The notes beneath the pieces are model-generated. The model was not told where the DNA came from. It was given only the letters and a program-made list of their open reading frames with translations, and did not search any database. 64,000 bases of DNA. It comes from a phage. The stretch lies in sequence record OZ335960.1. One strand, written 5' to 3'. The stretch's first letter is position 1, and every line of letters begins with the position of its first letter. The translations under genes were made by a program, and so were the position numbers. Shown here piece by piece: positions 1,495 through 11,565 of the stretch.

Positions 1495-1644
1495 TTACTG
1501 CATGACTGTGATAACTGTCATGATAACACGTTGAATTCCGAACGCAAGAAGACCTCCTGCTACGGCAGGAACAACACCTAAACCCGCCAGTAAAATGCTA
1601 CCAGATACTAATGCAGCGCTTGTAATACCAATGAATGGACTCAT
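1495..1644 (-). CDS. small hydrophobic protein, 49 aa
   Basis: ATG overlaps gene 52 stop (ATGA); MSPFIGITSAALVSGSILLAGLGVV...; ends just before terminator. Confidence 0.35.
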   Translation of the reverse strand: MSPFIGITSAALVSGSILLAGLGVVPAVAGGLLAFGIQRVIMTVITVMQ

Positions 1645-2969
1645 TTGATTTCCTCTAAATCTTTGGTGTATTCTGTAACTACATCAGTAGTTTTCCAATA
1701 TTCGTTTTCTTCTTTCTTAGCTTTAGCTTCTTCGGCAAGTTTCTTTGCTTCGTCGGAAGTCATATGAAAAATATTCATTCCGACTAGTTTATCAACATAA
1801 GAAGAATACATATCAATTTTAGAAAGTTCTTCGGTCAGTTCTTTGCGAGTTTTACCTTGCACAACAATTTCACCTGAAATTACTTTCTTAATGAAATGTG
1901 CCTTGGCAAAAGCTAAACGAAATGCTGATTCAGTTTCTTTGATTTTGTTATCAATTCGTTTTTGGACATAAGTTTTACGAACTTCAACGAAGTCTTTGAT
2001 TAAATCAACTACATTATCGTAAACTTGCAGCTTTCCTTTCTCATTAATAACGGTGATATTCTGGGAACGACGCTCAATCAACCCAAAGTCTTTCATGATT
2101 TTTGCGTGGCGTTCTTCTTCGTTATCGCTCAAAGAATATTCTTTGCGGAATTTAACTTTGAAGCCAAAACCATGCTCACCACAAGCATCATCCCACGTAA
2201 TGAAGCCTTTATCTTCAAGCGGGTCTAAGATTTTACTCACATAAGTTTCACGATCATACTTATACGGAATCTCAGTGATATGCATTTGAGTTCGTGAAGT
2301 AAACTTGTATGTTCCACGAATTTCATATTGACCGTCAATTTCAACGACTTCACCACGAAATTCTGGGAATTCTACCTTCGGTTTAGTTACTTTCTTTCCT
2401 TGAAGAGCTTGCAATACAGCTTTCTTGACAGAAGAAACACTATGAGGAAGAATGTAAGTTGCATAACCAGTTGCAATACCGGAAACACCATTAAGAAGAA
2501 CAGTAGGAATAATAGGCAAATAGAAAGCAGGCGGAATGTGTTCTTTATCTTGATGTACCGGAGCATATTCAGTATCTTTATATACACTATAGAAATTTTT
2601 ACTTACACGAGCAAAAATATAACGACTTGCCGCTGCTTTTTGAACGGTACGAGAACCAAAGTTTCCTTGACCATCTAACAAAGGAAAGTTATTATTCCAA
2701 GTATTAGCCATCAAAGCACCTGCGTCTTGCGCAGAGTTTTCACCATGATGATATCCAAGGTCTGCTACACCACCTGCAATAGAAGCGAGTTTGTGAAACT
2801 TATCTTTATTTCCTCGTGCCAAATCAAGAGCTCGAGCAATAACAAATCGTTGAACTGGCTTAAATCCATCAATCATATTTGGGATAGCACGATTTTCAAC
2901 CGTGTACATAGCATAAGCCAATGCTTCATTATCAATGATACTTTTTAAATCGCGATTATTCAGTTGCAT
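1641..2969 (-). CDS. 52: DNA topoisomerase II medium subunit gp52
   Basis: 442 aa as in T4 gp52; GyrA-like N-terminal motif AIPNMIDGFKPVQR. Confidence 0.9.
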   Translation of the reverse strand: MQLNNRDLKSIIDNEALAYAMYTVENRAIPNMIDGFKPVQRFVIARALDLARGNKDKFHKLASIAGGVADLGYHHGENSAQDAGALMANTWNNNFPLLDGQGNFGSRTVQKAAASRYIFARVSKNFYSVYKDTEYAPVHQDKEHIPPAFYLPIIPTVLLNGVSGIATGYATYILPHSVSSVKKAVLQALQGKKVTKPKVEFPEFRGEVVEIDGQYEIRGTYKFTSRTQMHITEIPYKYDRETYVSKILDPLEDKGFITWDDACGEHGFGFKVKFRKEYSLSDNEEERHAKIMKDFGLIERRSQNITVINEKGKLQVYDNVVDLIKDFVEVRKTYVQKRIDNKIKETESAFRLAFAKAHFIKKVISGEIVVQGKTRKELTEELSKIDMYSSYVDKLVGMNIFHMTSDEAKKLAEEAKAKKEENEYWKTTDVVTEYTKDLEEIK

Positions 2970-3106
2970 AAATTTACCATACTAGTGAATGTAGTGCCAT
3001 AATAACATCAGAAATGAAAAGCACGACTTGAATTAATCCGAACATTACTCCATAATATAGTGCTACCAATAAAGTAGCAAGGGCTAATGAATAGCCCAAG
3101 ATTTTC

Positions 3107-3265
3107 TTAATCATTAGTAGATAACAACACAAATGTTAAATATGCACACATACCCTGGGCTAAAGCTTGTGAAAACACACTGCTAGCATCAATACAGATA
3201 GTTAAAACACATGCTACTATCCAACAAACAAATGAAATAACTCCTAATAATTTTGCGATATTCAT
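3107..3265 (-). CDS. small membrane protein, Ac-like paralog (52 aa)
   Basis: Internal ATG of track ORF 3107..3295 with SD GAGGAG; hydrophobic; shares ...SVF.QA.AQG motif with adjacent ac. Confidence 0.5.
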   Translation of the reverse strand: MNIAKLLGVISFVCWIVACVLTICIDASSVFSQALAQGMCAYLTFVLLSTND

Positions 3266-3275
3266 AATATTCTCC

Positions 3276-3431
3276 TCAACTATTTTTAGAACCAATGTAC
3301 GCGAATAATGATAAAATCGCTAATACGCCCTGAGCTGATGCTTGCAAAAATACTGAAGTTTCTCCAGTTATTACTGTTCCGATGCATAAAAAGAACCAAC
3401 AGAAAAAGGCTATACCGTGAACAAATTTCAT
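3276..3431 (-). CDS. ac: small membrane protein Ac (acridine sensitivity), 51 aa
   Basis: Hand-translated MKFVHGIAFFCWFFLCIGTVITGETSVFLQASAQG...; 51 aa and position directly downstream of stp as in T4. Confidence 0.5.
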   Translation of the reverse strand: MKFVHGIAFFCWFFLCIGTVITGETSVFLQASAQGVLAILSLFAYIGSKNS

Positions 3432-3438
3432 ATTTTCC

Positions 3439-3519
3439 TCACTGGCGTCCGAAGACGCCTTTGGTTTTAAGATTATTACGATAGAACTGCATCACGTGTT
3501 CGTTATGGAAATTACTCAT
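3439..3519 (-). CDS. stp: Stp peptide (26 aa), activator of host anticodon nuclease PrrC
   Basis: Hand translation [26 protein letters not shown] matches the T4 Stp peptide as I recall it; ATG overlaps ndd stop. Confidence 0.75.
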
Positions 3520-3974
3520 TAGTATGCCTGCAAAACAAATTTAAAGTTATCAGCCAACATACGGTTCATTTCTTCAAGCGTTTGATATTCAGAATGATGA
3601 TTACGAGTAAACGCTAAAGCTAACTGGCCTTTTCCAAATCCTGTCGTCAGAGGTTTCATCTTAGAAGCAGGTAGATAAAATACTGTATATGGAACATTAT
3701 TATTTGCAATAGTACGCGCAAGCTGAGACCGACGCTGACGAATATGACTTAGAACTGCACTGAATCCTTGCTTAGAACGCTGATTACCTACATAAAATCG
3801 TGCAGATACACACGGACTATCAAATGGACCACCAAATTTACTCACTAAAAAGTAAAATCCAGGTGTAGATAAAATGTCTTTATGTGGAGTTCCAAAAACC
3901 CATTCACCGCCCTTGATTGTACCAATAACAGTAGCACCTGCATTATTCAAATCAGTAACAGTCATGTATTTCAT
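3519..3974 (-). CDS. ndd: Ndd nucleoid disruption protein
   Basis: 151 aa as T4 Ndd; position between denB and stp. Confidence 0.75.
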
Positions 3975-4033
3975 ATTAATTTCCTCTAATTATTTTCTAC
4001 TCCAAGGCCGCATGAATACACACGGCCGATAAA

Positions 4034-4351
4034 TTAATCGTCGCAGTCGACGCTCAATTCCCAGAACTCTTCTACAGTATAAGTTTCAGTATCGTTTTCA
4101 ATACAGAAACGTTCATTACTGTTATTTGCTAAAGTAGCATTAACTGTCATTTTCTCGCTAGTGCTCTTAAGAGGTGAAATACGAATTAACTGATCACCAC
4201 TATCCAAGCAAAAAATTTCGCCAACTTTTACATCTTTAAAAATTTTCATATTCACCTCAGGGAGTATAAAATCCAAATGCAGTTGTTGACCATCCCATCC
4301 AATACGGAAAATTTGCACCAACGTAAAACATGAGAATATAAAACCAACCAC
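4034..4351 (-). CDS. hypothetical protein (ndd-denB interval); true start may be internal ATG at 4249
   Basis: Six-frame ORF 105 aa; internal MKIFKDVKVGE start has SD GAGGTG. Confidence 0.45.
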   Translation of the reverse strand: MVGFIFSCFTLVQIFRIGWDGQQLHLDFILPEVNMKIFKDVKVGEIFCLDSGDQLIRISPLKSTSEKMTVNATLANNSNERFCIENDTETYTVEEFWELSVDCDD

Positions 4352-4682: not shown

Positions 4683-4702
4683 TTTCTGTTCCTCCGTAGT
4701 TG

Positions 4703-4742
4703 ATAGTTGTATAGTACCACAGAGGAACAGTCTTGTAAACAA
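4703..4742 (-). promoter_or_regulatory. T4-type early promoter
   Basis: Conserved repeat GTTTACAagactgttcctctgtggTACTATAC on minus strand. Confidence 0.55.
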
Positions 4743-4957
4743 CTTTTTTAAAAATATTCGTAATAAATGTGAATACCAATCACTACTGCCGAAACTTGCG
4801 CAACCCACCACGCACAAGCAATAAGCACAGAATTCAAAATTTTCATAATAACCTCATTACAAAAGTAAATGTTAAACAAATTAATGGAATACTAATTAAC
4901 CAAACAAAACACCACCACAATGAACTCATAGTTCAATCTCAACGATTTTCATTTTAC

Positions 4958-5176: not shown

Positions 5177-5189
5177 ATCCGTATCAGTT

Positions 5190-5231
5190 GATAGTTGTAT
5201 AGTACCACAGTCCTTGTGGTATGTAAACCGT
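5190..5231 (-). promoter_or_regulatory. T4-type early promoter
   Basis: -35 GTTTACA / -10 TACTAT; spacer contains CCACA..TGTGG inverted repeat. Confidence 0.55.
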
Positions 5232-5245
5232 TTTGTGAAAATTTT

Positions 5246-5803
5246 TTAAATGGAAAGATACCATCCGTTGTAGTTGCTTTTTCTTACAACCTTACGAAGG
5301 TCTTCTCTATCACCGATGAACTTCGGAGTGTACTGGATGACACCTGGGTGAATTTCTTTAGTGTTGAATATAATTATACAGTCAGCGACCTGATGATTCA
5401 GAATGGGCCCTAGATTTATTCCAGAACCATATGGATACTCTCCGCTGCATCCTGTTGTTACAGAAATCCAACGTGAGTCAGTTTGATGTGTCTTAACTTC
5501 TACACGAAGCCCGCAATATCTTGGATGCGCCAATACATCCCATGCGTATGTATACGGGTCATTAACATCCTCTTGGCCTTTGTTAACATACCCGCTTAGC
5601 CAATCTGCTACAAAAAACTCTGCGTACACCGCGATACGACATCTTTCAATAACTTCTGCTTTATCCTGATTTGGATTTTGTTTTAAAGAGTATCTTGCTG
5701 TATCAGCAATTTTGACCTTCATTTCACTAGTCAAGTCACTGTTCGATAGGGTAAATGTCGGAATCTGAAATAGTCTCTGTAAACCCGGATTCGTTTTCTG
5801 CAT
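5246..5803 (-). CDS. denB: endonuclease IV DenB
   Basis: 185 aa as T4 DenB; position next to rIIB side. Confidence 0.75.
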   Translation of the reverse strand: MQKTNPGLQRLFQIPTFTLSNSDLTSEMKVKIADTARYSLKQNPNQDKAEVIERCRIAVYAEFFVADWLSGYVNKGQEDVNDPYTYAWDVLAHPRYCGLRVEVKTHQTDSRWISVTTGCSGEYPYGSGINLGPILNHQVADCIIIFNTKEIHPGVIQYTPKFIGDREDLRKVVRKSNYNGWYLSI

Positions 5804-6077: not shown

Positions 6078-6098
6078 AAACAAAAGGGCCGAAGCCCC
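6078..6098 (-). terminator. UUCG-loop hairpin terminator
   Basis: minus strand GGGGCUUCGGCCC followed by U-run. Confidence 0.5.
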
Positions 6099-6103
6099 TT
6101 ATT

Positions 6104-6298
6104 TTATTTGAATTGTGCAATTCTTTTTTCTAAACAATCTGCGTAAGATTTCATTGAGATGAACTGTGAAAGCAGTAATTCTTGCTCAACTTCATTAATC
6201 GTTAGAAACTTTGTGCTTTCTAAAAATTTGCTCAGTGCATTAATTTTGAGCATTAATTGATCGTATTCTTCTTTTACTCGTGCTTGATAACCTAACAT
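6104..6298 (-). CDS. hypothetical protein, 64 aa
   Basis: Six-frame ORF bracketed by two UUCG hairpins. Confidence 0.5.
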   Translation of the reverse strand: MLGYQARVKEEYDQLMLKINALSKFLESTKFLTINEVEQELLLSQFISMKSYADCLEKRIAQFK

Positions 6299-6326
6299 AA
6301 TTTTCCTTAGTTAAGGGCCGAAGCCC

Positions 6327-7265
6327 TTATTTAAATTGTTCAGTAACGTCTTCAACTACTTCGTATTGGCAGGTACGCATTTTAGCATCATTGTAATCAA
6401 TCGGAATTGATACTACATCGCGAGGATGTACTTTAACTTTTACAACTCGACTGGTTGAACTGCCAAAGTGACGAATATAAGATTTAGAACACACATGCAG
6501 ACCATGAGAACAAGTTTGTGTATCATCGTCATTCACGCGAGTACGTGGCATTTTAACTACTTTACCGGGACTGTTATCAAAAGTATTTGAATGACAGTCA
6601 AAGTAATTGCTGCGAACTACTTTCCAAGCATAGAAGTAACCATCTTCTGTAATTTCAATATCGTTTGCTACCAAGAAATCAAAGAGTCGAGATACTGCTT
6701 TTTGGCTTGGGTTTTCCAACAGATTTTCCAAGAACGGAAAATAAAATTCAAAGTTTTCACCTTTTTCCATCGAATCGAGAATACGATCAACTAAACCAGA
6801 CCGCAATTCAATATTTTGATAGAACAAGCTTCCACCTTCAATTCGAACATCACCGGAAATATATTTTTCAACAGCGCGGCGAACATTAATTTTTTGTGCC
6901 GCTTCTTCCAATTTATCTGCAACAAGCAGATTAAGAATTTCCTGGAAGTTTGAATGAGTATTAGGAGTTGCGTTATAAGTTACACCGTCAACAGTAATTG
7001 AAATGAATTTTTTAGATGCATTCCAAATAATGTCAGATTTAGCAACTGGAGCGATAGCTGTATCGCTATTAACTTTAACCGTAATATCACCACTAATAGT
7101 AACTTTAGAGCGCTCAGCTTCTTCAGCATTTTTCAAAACACGACGGATTGTGTCAACCGATACACCTTGCCAATCAGCCAATTCCTGCTGGGTGTAATTA
7201 CCACTTGAATACAGTTTGACAATTTCAGCTTGTTCGTTTTTGGTCAGGCATTTAATATTGTACAT
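6327..7265 (-). CDS. rIIB: rIIB membrane-associated protein
   Basis: 312 aa as T4 rIIB; immediately downstream of rIIA. Confidence 0.85.
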   Translation of the reverse strand: MYNIKCLTKNEQAEIVKLYSSGNYTQQELADWQGVSVDTIRRVLKNAEEAERSKVTISGDITVKVNSDTAIAPVAKSDIIWNASKKFISITVDGVTYNATPNTHSNFQEILNLLVADKLEEAAQKINVRRAVEKYISGDVRIEGGSLFYQNIELRSGLVDRILDSMEKGENFEFYFPFLENLLENPSQKAVSRLFDFLVANDIEITEDGYFYAWKVVRSNYFDCHSNTFDNSPGKVVKMPRTRVNDDDTQTCSHGLHVCSKSYIRHFGSSTSRVVKVKVHPRDVVSIPIDYNDAKMRTCQYEVVEDVTEQFK

Positions 7266-9722: not shown

Positions 9723-11540
9723 CTACTGGCTCATCCATTCTTTACGAAGGTCAGCATTATCTCCCATGAGCATTTCAAAAAGCTCTTTCCAGTTCTCAGG
9801 AAGTTTAACAACATCATATACCGGGTTTTGAATCATCTCACGATATTCAGATTTTTCCAAAGAGCCAAGTCCCTTAATATAACGGATGCTATGTTTAGGT
9901 AGAGCATCTTTGGCACTCTCATATTCAGCGACTGTATAAAACCATTCTTGTTTTTTACCGACCTGGGCGATGATTACAGGAGTTTTGACGAAACGAATTC
10001 TTCCTTGTTCAAACAGTTCTGGCCAATTACTAAAAAATCCGAGCAGAGAAGGATAAATGCTTCCTAGACCATCGTGGTCAGCATCGGTCATAATAGCAAT
10101 ATTATGATAATTCAAGTTTTCAGCTTTTTCACCAAGAACTAATCCAGTGATTGCGCAAATATCAAATAGTTCTTTGTTTTTAAGCATATCAGCATATGAC
10201 ATACCCCAGCTATTAAGAACTTTACCACGCAATGGATAACCACCATGAAGTTCTTTATCACGAACATCAATAAGATATCCGATAGCAGAATCACCCTCAG
10301 TCAAGAAAAGAGTAGTATCAGCATCTTTACCGCAAAGATTCGCTTTAATGTGTTTATGAACCTTAGCTTTAGAAGCCTTTTTAGCTGCTTTAGTTTCTGC
10401 TGCCTTTTCTGCCGCCAATTTACGAGCCAAGGCAGCTTCAATAATTGGCATTAAAATTGCTTCATTATTTAAAATAGCACGTGAAATCTTTTTAGCATCA
10501 AGCTGAATATGACTACGAATTTCACCAAATGGAGAAGTCAAACGCTCTTTAGTCTGAGAATCAAATCGCATGTTTTTCATATCACGAACAAACATAACGA
10601 TAGTCAAACATTCTTTAACCCGTGCTTTAGTTACATCAATTTTAAACTTGCGTTTGATTTGTGGAATAAGGTCTTCACAAATATCATCCATAACGCAGTC
10701 AATGTGATGGCCACCATTCTTAGTATGAATGTTATTGACGTATGTTAATTGACGAAAACCATCCGGTGAACGACCGACTGCAATAGAACAGTTTTCCTGT
10801 TCTTGAACGATAGCATGCTCATCATATTGGCGTGCATATTTCTTAAAATTACCCTGAACCTTTTTACCATTAAAGGTAAATTGAATATCAGGATAAACTA
10901 CTGCAAGTGTCTGGAGACGATCCAGTGTAATGTCAAGATAAACTTGAGATAGCTCATTAGTTTCAAATGACATAAAATCAGGAATGAAAGTAACACGAGT
11001 TCCTTTCCATTTTCCAGGAATAGTTTCCCATGATTTATTTTCCATGCCATTTGAACAACGAACTACAATATTATTTTGACCGTCGCCAGTTTCACCGACA
11101 AACATCACAGAAAAAATGTTAGTTAAACTAGAACCAACACCGTTCATACCGCCAGTGACGCGTTCTTTATCATCACCAAAGTTACCACCTGCTTTTGGAA
11201 TAGTCCATGCAGCAACAGGACCAGGAATTTCTTCACCAGTAGGTGTTTTAACCATCGCTTGCGGAATACCACGACCGTTATCTTCAACTGTTACTTGATT
11301 GTTTTTGATAGTAACATTAATTTTATTCGCGAATTTAAACTTAGTACGAATACCTTCATCTACTGAGTTATCGATAATTTCATCAATAAGCTTAACAAGA
11401 CCAGGTACATACTGAACACTTTCCCATTTACCAAACAGAAAGCGCTCATGCATTTCATTAGCAGAAGAACCAATGTACATGCCGCTACGCTTTTTGATAT
11501 GTTCAATATCGCTCAGAATTTTAATTTCATTCTTAATCAT
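9723..11540 (-). CDS. 39: DNA topoisomerase II large subunit, fused 39/60 form (605 aa)
   Basis: GyrB-like ATPase N-terminus; C-terminus ...NIAIMTDADHDGLGSIYPSL contiguous, no split or bypass; ATG at 11540. Confidence 0.9.
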   Translation of the reverse strand: MIKNEIKILSDIEHIKKRSGMYIGSSANEMHERFLFGKWESVQYVPGLVKLIDEIIDNSVDEGIRTKFKFANKINVTIKNNQVTVEDNGRGIPQAMVKTPTGEEIPGPVAAWTIPKAGGNFGDDKERVTGGMNGVGSSLTNIFSVMFVGETGDGQNNIVVRCSNGMENKSWETIPGKWKGTRVTFIPDFMSFETNELSQVYLDITLDRLQTLAVVYPDIQFTFNGKKVQGNFKKYARQYDEHAIVQEQENCSIAVGRSPDGFRQLTYVNNIHTKNGGHHIDCVMDDICEDLIPQIKRKFKIDVTKARVKECLTIVMFVRDMKNMRFDSQTKERLTSPFGEIRSHIQLDAKKISRAILNNEAILMPIIEAALARKLAAEKAAETKAAKKASKAKVHKHIKANLCGKDADTTLFLTEGDSAIGYLIDVRDKELHGGYPLRGKVLNSWGMSYADMLKNKELFDICAITGLVLGEKAENLNYHNIAIMTDADHDGLGSIYPSLLGFFSNWPELFEQGRIRFVKTPVIIAQVGKKQEWFYTVAEYESAKDALPKHSIRYIKGLGSLEKSEYREMIQNPVYDVVKLPENWKELFEMLMGDNADLRKEWMSQ

Positions 11541-11565
11541 CACTTATCCTCGTTTGGTTTCGGGA

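Follow-up and report, generated by a model that had tools for sequence, protein, structure and literature searches.

The stretch of phage DNA analysed here, referred to as the window (sequence record OZ335960.1; 64,000 nucleotides), carries on its minus strand a tight string of genes which, as read over 2400-4200 with the open reading frames listed, are in order ndd, stp, acA, acB, 52.1 and gene 52. The names acA and acB denote the two Ac-family genes that lie in the ac slot, where T4 has a single gene. The genes and smaller features of the locus are:

1641-2969, minus strand: gene 52, topoisomerase II medium subunit, 442 aa
2974-3114, minus strand: 52.1, small hydrophobic protein (DUF7396), 46 aa; PF24129, E=3.5e-23
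3107-3265, minus strand: acB, orthologue of T4 ac, 52 aa; phrog_2501
3152-3181, minus strand: SVFSQALAQG motif at the start of acB helix 2, acB residues 29-38
~3267-3432, minus strand: 166-bp unit without counterpart in T4, comprising acA and the ribosome-binding site of acB, from a window/T4/KNP5 three-way alignment and a ten-genome alignment
3276-3431, minus strand: acA, Ac-family paralogue without counterpart in T4, 51 aa; MKFVHGIAFFCWFFLCIGTVITGETSVFLQASAQGVLAILSLFAYIGSKNS
3327-3356, minus strand: SVFLQASAQG motif at the start of acA helix 2, acA residues 26-35
3439-3519, minus strand: stp, 26 aa; PF08133, phrog_6763
3444-3459, minus strand: GGCGUC-UUCG-GACGCC tetraloop hairpin, within the last stp codons and 4 nt before the acA Shine-Dalgarno sequence
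3519-3974, minus strand: ndd, nucleoid disruption protein, 151 aa; Pfam PF06591, E=8e-89, phrog_1102
4698-4759, minus strand: early-promoter-like cassette (GTTTACA … TGGTACTATA), the nearest copy upstream of the locus; promoter-like match 4739..4711

Neighbouring genes overlap or nearly touch: ndd and stp share 1 nt and acB and 52.1 share 8 nt, and gaps of 7, 10 and 4 nt separate stp from acA, acA from acB, and 52.1 from gene 52, respectively, so that 3107-3519 has the acB stop and the stp start as its exact limits. The ndd gene is annotated at the same position, directly upstream of stp, in Shigella phage KNP5 and in T4, and 52.1, which starts at the ATG at 3114, encodes a product 98% identical to T4 gp52.1. 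At the DNA level the region is 99% identical to that of KNP5 and 98.5% identical to that of pSs-1, and it is matched by 546 records, almost all from Tequatrovirus (in this and all other record counts, some phages are counted twice, with a GenBank and a RefSeq entry). Judged by this similarity, the source phage is a Tequatrovirus (T4-like) whose nearest relatives are the Shigella phages KNP5 and pSs-1, and the locus is, by gene content and order, the ordinary T4 early string ndd-stp-ac-52.1-52, with an ac slot that holds two diverged tandem Ac-family genes.

Some public annotations of neighbouring genes are misleading: ndd is labelled ‘naphthalene 1,2-dioxygenase’ in the genomes of several relatives, and KNP5 lists the motA.1 product, of 49 aa, as ‘flagellar motor protein MotA’. 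Elsewhere in the window, the large subunit of topoisomerase II is encoded by a single 606-aa open reading frame (9723-11543, minus strand; HATPase_c, DNA_gyraseB and TOPRIM_C), which adjoins rIIA. In T4 this subunit is split into genes 39 and 60, and thus both the gene 39/60 split and the gene 60 bypass are apparently absent here.

The gene directly after ndd encodes the 26-aa Stp peptide, just as the preliminary description had read it: the stp ATG shares one base with the ndd stop (TAATG), all 26 of the 26 residues equal those of T4 Stp (100% identity), and the product matches PF08133 (Nuclease_act) over its full length 1-26 (75.3 bits vs a cutoff of 25, E=2e-21) as well as phrog_6763 (E=4e-21). 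The slot, directly after ndd and before ac, is the usual one for the family, and T4 Stp has the same sequence in the same place overlapping the ndd stop, with no difference in the window. In T4, the target of Stp is EcoprrI, a type Ic restriction enzyme, and its inhibition unmasks PrrC, the tRNA-Lys anticodon nuclease; loss-of-function mutations of Stp concentrate in residues 4-14, and removing the eight C-terminal stp codons lowers activity only moderately (PMC3014915). The conserved N-proximal 18 residues, a requirement taken from the same review, are all present here. By analogy, Stp of the window would act as in T4, inhibiting type Ic restriction and unmasking the PrrC anticodon nuclease in prr+ hosts. 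The earlier label of a ‘defence-interaction locus’ is apt for stp and does not extend to the Ac genes, as nothing links Ac to PrrC. The UUCG hairpin in the last stp codons lies within a predicted fold (3415-3475) of -17.5 kcal/mol with z=-3.4; in the ten-genome alignment it is kept in T4, RB51 and RB33 and absent from the stp of the T2/T6/F1 type.

The promoter-like cassette upstream of ndd is one of three copies of a ~62-nt element (1396-1457, 4698-4759 and 5186-5247, all on the minus strand; repeat family D1), which are 71-84% identical to one another and have the look of a T4 early promoter, with GTTTACA, a 17-nt spacer and TGGTACTATA. Its sequence and position make the 4698-4759 copy the probable start of a transcript carrying ndd-stp-acA-acB-52.1-52. 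From ndd to gene 52, the gaps of 0-10 nt leave no room for a promoter or terminator. Promoter-like matches in a scan within the locus were no more numerous than in shuffled sequence, and terminator-like matches within coding sequence were put down to chance or to the UUCG hairpin of stp. A single early polycistronic mRNA probably serves for the translation of both acA and acB, with a strong ribosome-binding site for each. In the minimum-free-energy fold, the acA Shine-Dalgarno sequence (GAGG, 5 nt before the ATG) pairs with codons 4-5, and translation of acA may therefore be weak or depend on coupling to stp; a dependence on ribosomes finishing stp is a speculative extension of this fold model. 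Two further elements were seen in passing. Inside 52.1 (2985-3015, minus strand), GTGCTTTTCA followed ~13 nt later by TATTAT resembles, by eye, a MotA-box middle promoter for gene 52. Between denB and rIIB, there are two copies of AAGGGCCGAAGCCC(C)TTATTT (6084-6108 and 6313-6337), in each of which a GC hairpin with a loop of four bases precedes a T-run on the plus strand, in a stretch whose genes lie on the minus strand.

The paralogous pair in the ac slot

The preliminary description had proposed two tandem Ac-like membrane paralogues of ~51 aa sharing the motif S-V-F-x-Q-A-x-A-Q-G, and this is borne out: the two hydrophobic proteins are 51 and 52 aa long, both contain the motif, they align with each other by pairwise BLASTP without gaps (E=8e-10, 43% identity over 40 aa), and both match phrog_2501 over their full length (E=4.9e-26 for acA and E=1e-24 for acB). 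Both also lie between stp (or ndd) and 52.1 and have the size and layout of the family, that is, ~47-52 aa with two hydrophobic helices and a short polar loop (taken for acB from the alignment). By these alignments, acA and acB are true Ac-family paralogues. The core SV(F/I)xQxxxQG is present in both copies and in nearly all aligned relatives, with A in place of the motif G in the distant cluster P0015. This G aligns with G38 of T4 Ac, where the substitution G38R inactivates the protein and leads to acriflavine resistance (preprint 10.1101/2025.06.30.662393).

The alignment with T4 that had been suggested as a check identifies the downstream copy as the orthologue of T4 ac and the upstream copy as the one that is extra relative to T4. 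Compared with T4 Ac (NP_049877, 51 aa), the acB protein has the substitution I13V and an additional Thr ahead of its C-terminal ND, and T4 ac resembles acB in its slot between stp and 52.1 and in its 8-nt overlap with 52.1. Ac variants with the Thr insertion are described as common, and phage PP01, which carries such a variant, is reported to stay acriflavine-sensitive (preprint 10.1101/2025.06.30.662393). The acB start was placed at the ATG at 3265, 6 nt downstream of a GAGGAG Shine-Dalgarno sequence, and the mechanically called open reading frame 3107-3295 (TTG start, 62 aa) was rejected as too long. The acA protein is 41-42% identical to both acB and T4 Ac; it has in common with T4 Ac its length, two-helix layout and SVFxQAxAQG, including G38, and differs in having a TGETS loop where T4 Ac has CIDAS, and in its C-terminus GSKNS.

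Based on the searches as run, the Ac family appears to be tiny and found only in T4-like phages. A word-indexed protein search returned only 7 close relatives, and an exhaustive profile search, run against 1.84 billion representatives, gave about seven Ac clusters at 50% identity, all of 48-52 aa and only a few of them additional, and no cellular homologue; two weak matches in long repetitive proteins (2254 and 859 aa; E ~1e-4; 16 residues matched) were regarded as spurious. A PDB sequence search gave no match, and local Pfam/NCBIfam searches placed no model on either Ac protein, with sub-threshold noise only (DUF1846_C 13 bits, Bac51 15 bits); PF26944 is flagged on the relatives P0004 and P0007. 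The neighbouring 52.1 was considered as a third Ac paralogue and rejected (hhalign probability against the Ac profile 0.06%; the Ac proteins have no PF24129 match).

The extra copy is identical (100%) to the KNP5 ‘acridine resistance protein’ YP_010278388, and a tblastn search found intact acA at least 95% identical in 48 phage records, with at least 99% identity in 40 of the 48 and an unbroken reading frame in all 48. The dN/dS ratio (Nei-Gojobori) of the window acA against its orthologues is 0.31-0.49 where dS is measurable; the closest pair, with no more than 10 differing sites, gives 0.67, and comparisons among the orthologues themselves give 0.11-0.43. The preliminary description had allowed that the second Ac-like gene might lack conservation, and with these 48 records and dN/dS below 1 that objection falls away. 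That acA is a silent or decaying duplicate without a product would agree with its being skipped by several public annotations (e.g. LR746311, LN881732 and PQ666542, where the matching stretch is unannotated), with the predicted RNA fold that partly masks its Shine-Dalgarno sequence and with its loss in T4-type and T2/T6-type phages alike; we nevertheless consider this very improbable, given the intact frame in 48 of 48 close copies, 40 of them at least 99% identical in protein, dN/dS below 1, the invariant motif, and the occurrence of the acA type as the sole ac gene in several genera. By these comparative measures, acA is conserved and under purifying selection, and is a maintained gene.

Proposed gain and loss of ac genes among relatives

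Three arrangements of the slot account for the 450 records that contain an acB 5′ end. The tandem acA plus acB is found in ~50 of roughly 450-546 Tequatrovirus records (51 records cover the whole of a 150-bp probe laid over the junction of acA and acB, and an independent probe gave 50). Its carriers include KNP5, pSs-1, PST, ECML-134, slur07, Aplg8, Sf22, SHBML-50-1 and the BASEL phage FriedrichZschokke and span phages of Escherichia, Shigella, Yersinia and Citrobacter; recurrence of the same junction in ~50 independent records led us to reject an assembly artefact. The T2/T6/F1 type is found in 32 records, and the T4 type, with acB only, makes up the remainder of the 450 (~370 records). A further ~47 records have an acA-type gene at 60-90% identity, which is the sole ac gene in most of those checked; T4_ev151, with an acA-type gene at 88%, has the tandem pair. 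Several tandem records are annotated ‘acridine resistance (x2)’, and in KNP5 both genes are named; elsewhere in public records acA is often left unannotated. The label ‘acridine resistance protein’ runs counter to the wild-type phenotype, as it is the loss of ac that gives resistance.

The acA type is the sole ac gene in RB51, RB33, RPN226 (Tequatrovirus) and F2, and likewise in ESh15 (Mosigvirus), UPEC01 (Gaprivervirus) and Roth20/KP179 (Klebsiella T4-like), and all of these proteins carry a TGET(S/T)V loop. The window acA is 71-76% identical to the proteins of RB51, RB33 and UPEC01 and 47-53% identical to those of Mosigvirus, F2 (Tequatrovirus) and Klebsiella-phage/Jiaodavirus members, whereas acB is only 26-39% identical to the same single-copy Ac proteins. 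In a neighbour-joining tree, acA clusters with the single-copy Ac of RB51, RB33, Gaprivervirus and Mosigvirus, and T4 Ac/acB together with the intermediate cluster P0009 form a separate long branch. On this tree and these identities, T4 Ac is a divergent branch and acA belongs to the more widespread one. The ac genes of RB51, RB33, RB68, Gaprivervirus, Mosigvirus and Jiaodavirus share with acA both the slot and the TGET(S/T)V loop; in those single-copy phages ac stands alone and overlaps the start of 52.1, whereas acA of the window precedes a second ribosome-binding site and acB.

The DNA that is extra relative to T4 has the form of a gene-sized unit. It is flanked by the repeat TGAGGA(A/G)AATAT..ATGAA, and its boundaries are near-repeats of a ribosome-binding site and start codon, GTGAGGAAAATATGAA and TTGAGGAGAATATTATGAA; because these edges are repeated, the exact end points may shift by a few bases. 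In the T4 type, the acA ribosome-binding site is joined straight to the acB ATG, a junction that is, from its sequence, what an ATG-to-ATG deletion of acA would leave, and T4-type phages may have lost acA in this way. The second arrangement suggests another deletion. The C-terminus of T2/T6-type Stp (…NFGILG-SKNS) differs from that of T4 and the window, with tails reading …NLKNFGILG-SKNS in F1 and …GFKNS in T6 (L016:1838-1924), and in T2, T6 and F1 the variant stp is directly followed by GGTTCTAAAAATAGTTGAGGAGAATATTATG, which corresponds to the last four acA codons, the stop and the acB ribosome-binding site; in the T2/T6 type, 31 bases are shared with the acA 3′ end and the acB ribosome-binding site (window 3276-3300 compared). 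We propose that a deletion fused stp codon 24 to acA codon 48, leaving the last four acA codons on stp. In the alignment the T2/T6/F1 stp tail thus looks like an stp-acA fusion scar, which agrees with the changes at the C-terminus that Stp is reported to tolerate (PMC3014915).

The tandem itself would have arisen when the 166-bp unit, which spans ribosome-binding site through stop codon, was duplicated or was crossed by unequal recombination. The two genes are saturated at synonymous sites (dS 1.6), and for this reason an old duplication in place is not separable from the stacking of two alleles by unequal recombination.

Other small genes occupy the same interval in relatives. Escherichia phage REP4 has a different 53-aa two-helix open reading frame (phrog_9347; L006:510-671) between stp and ac, the 3′ end of which repeats the ac/52.1 junction AAAAATGATTAAGAAA, and Klebsiella and Gaprivervirus relatives have another 57-aa hydrophobic open reading frame (phrog_5941) beside or replacing stp. 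Because its contents vary in this way among relatives, the stp-ac slot appears to be a small hot spot in which gene-sized units are swapped at short conserved boundaries. Gain, loss and swapping of gene-sized units at short conserved boundaries is likewise a feature of PeSL-type shuffling in the hyperplastic regions of T4-like phages (Arbiol et al. 2010, PMC2839356; PMC4122927). In place of the promoter-stem-loop cassettes of that system, the boundaries here are a ribosome-binding site with ATG and the ac/52.1 overlap, and we take the likeness as a lead only. Finally, ac of the sequenced T2 reference is cut short by a premature stop (GVI*FICW; L013) and T6 Ac has a frameshifted C-terminus (…AQGMWCIFNICVVI; L016:1678-1827), and classical laboratory stocks may thus carry ac mutations.

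Predicted action of the Ac proteins

An AlphaFold2 model of the acA protein, built from an 8-sequence alignment, consists of a helix (2-22), a loop (23-26, G-E-T-S) and a second helix (27-50), with a mean pLDDT of 78, and both proteins are strongly hydrophobic (GRAVY 1.15 for acA and 1.41 for acB). Both have a Lys near the N-terminus and an acidic residue in the loop, and acA has in addition K49 near its C-terminus, from which we infer that both ends of each protein are cytoplasmic. Each Ac protein is accordingly read as a putative hairpin of ~50 residues and two helices that would insert into the inner membrane. In helix 2 (acA numbering), a polar stripe formed by S26, Q30 and Q34 adjoins a stripe of small residues, A31, G35 and A38, which would be suited to close helix-helix packing.

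Acriflavine sensitivity conferred by wild-type ac has been shown only for the T4 and T2 genes, both of the acB type. Expression of T4 Ac from a plasmid is reported to make E. coli more sensitive to both acriflavine and ampicillin, and a block of the AcrAB-TolC pump by Ac has been proposed as a hypothesis in the same work (preprint 10.1101/2025.06.30.662393) and taken up as an assumption in a 2026 PNAS paper (PMC13250531). By analogy with T4, both Ac copies would raise the level of acridine-type cationic dyes inside the infected cell. We prefer a model in which helix 2 docks on a partner in the host inner membrane, e.g. AcrAB-TolC, and export is blocked; among the possible outcomes of helix-2 packing, efflux blocking is the likeliest by this analogy, at a confidence that falls somewhat short of even odds.

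In another model, the Ac copies would be small pore-forming or membrane-perturbing oligomers, similar to viroporins, with the Ser/Gln stripe of helix 2 lining a leak for cationic dyes. The position of S26, Q30 and Q34 on one face of helix 2 (80-160 degrees), beside the A-G-A packing face, is in line with such a pore, as is the older interpretation by Silver, which, in the summary given in the preprint (10.1101/2025.06.30.662393), is one of increased permeability. The same preprint reports the ampicillin sensitisation by Ac and argues for efflux inhibition, which speaks against a pore. E. coli AcrZ (49 aa), which binds AcrB, offers a possible functional analogy only, as an inner-membrane peptide of ~50 aa that might modulate AcrB. 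AcrZ has one transmembrane helix and Ac a predicted two, and hhalign found no similarity between them (probability 0.17%), a result that would also suit the pore. On balance a pore is the main alternative, which we hold to be rather unlikely, and efflux blocking stays the preferred action.

The presence of two copies raises the question of whether their functions are split, either because acA and acB form an obligatory hetero-oligomer or because each is tuned to a different host target, e.g. the pumps of different Enterobacteria. The two copies are of old origin and have drifted far apart (41% identity, with saturated dS), both keep the motif, and the pair persists in ~50 records, which would agree with a division of labour. 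Set against this are the ~370 records with acB only and the ~47 with the acA type only: most relatives manage with either copy alone, which argues against an obligatory partnership, and a split of functions seems doubtful to us. We are equally hesitant about a broader version in which T4 Ac is a derived side branch and acA is the mainstream form with its own activity, tandem carriers make two distinct hairpin peptides (as a hetero-oligomer or for different envelope targets) and the long-known divergent tail of T2/T6 Stp is an acA-deletion scar; as a whole we consider this combination improbable. Efflux blocking by each hairpin, at the confidence given above, is retained in the overall reading below.

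Novelty and meaning

Taken together, the explanation put forward here comprises a T4-type early string, a tandem ac, Ac proteins that would be membrane hairpins and would sensitise the cell to dyes, loss of acA in other phages and an Stp that would act as in T4, and we give it a probability of about three in four. Both stp and ac belong to the textbook gene set of T4. Nor is the tandem pair new: KNP5, Aplg8 and other records list proteins identical to those of the window under the name ‘acridine resistance protein’, and dozens of GenBank entries contain and name the doubled ac. We searched the literature for accounts of an ac duplication and found none. Two points appear to be unwritten so far, namely that T4 Ac is divergent and acA widespread, and that the T2/T6 Stp tail resembles an acA remnant.

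The practical value is modest and what is known of Stp and PrrC is unchanged. Ac is among the oldest genetic markers of T4, a phage with the divergent paralogue alone; among therapeutic-type Tequatroviruses, many have two copies or only the other type, which affects the choice of test phage for the AcrAB-TolC hypothesis, and screens for sensitivity to acriflavine or intercalators may not carry over from T4 to its relatives. For the evolution of these phages, the locus is an example on a small scale of gene-sized insertions and deletions at ribosome-binding-site repeats, which would also account for the difference at the C-terminus of T2/T6 Stp.
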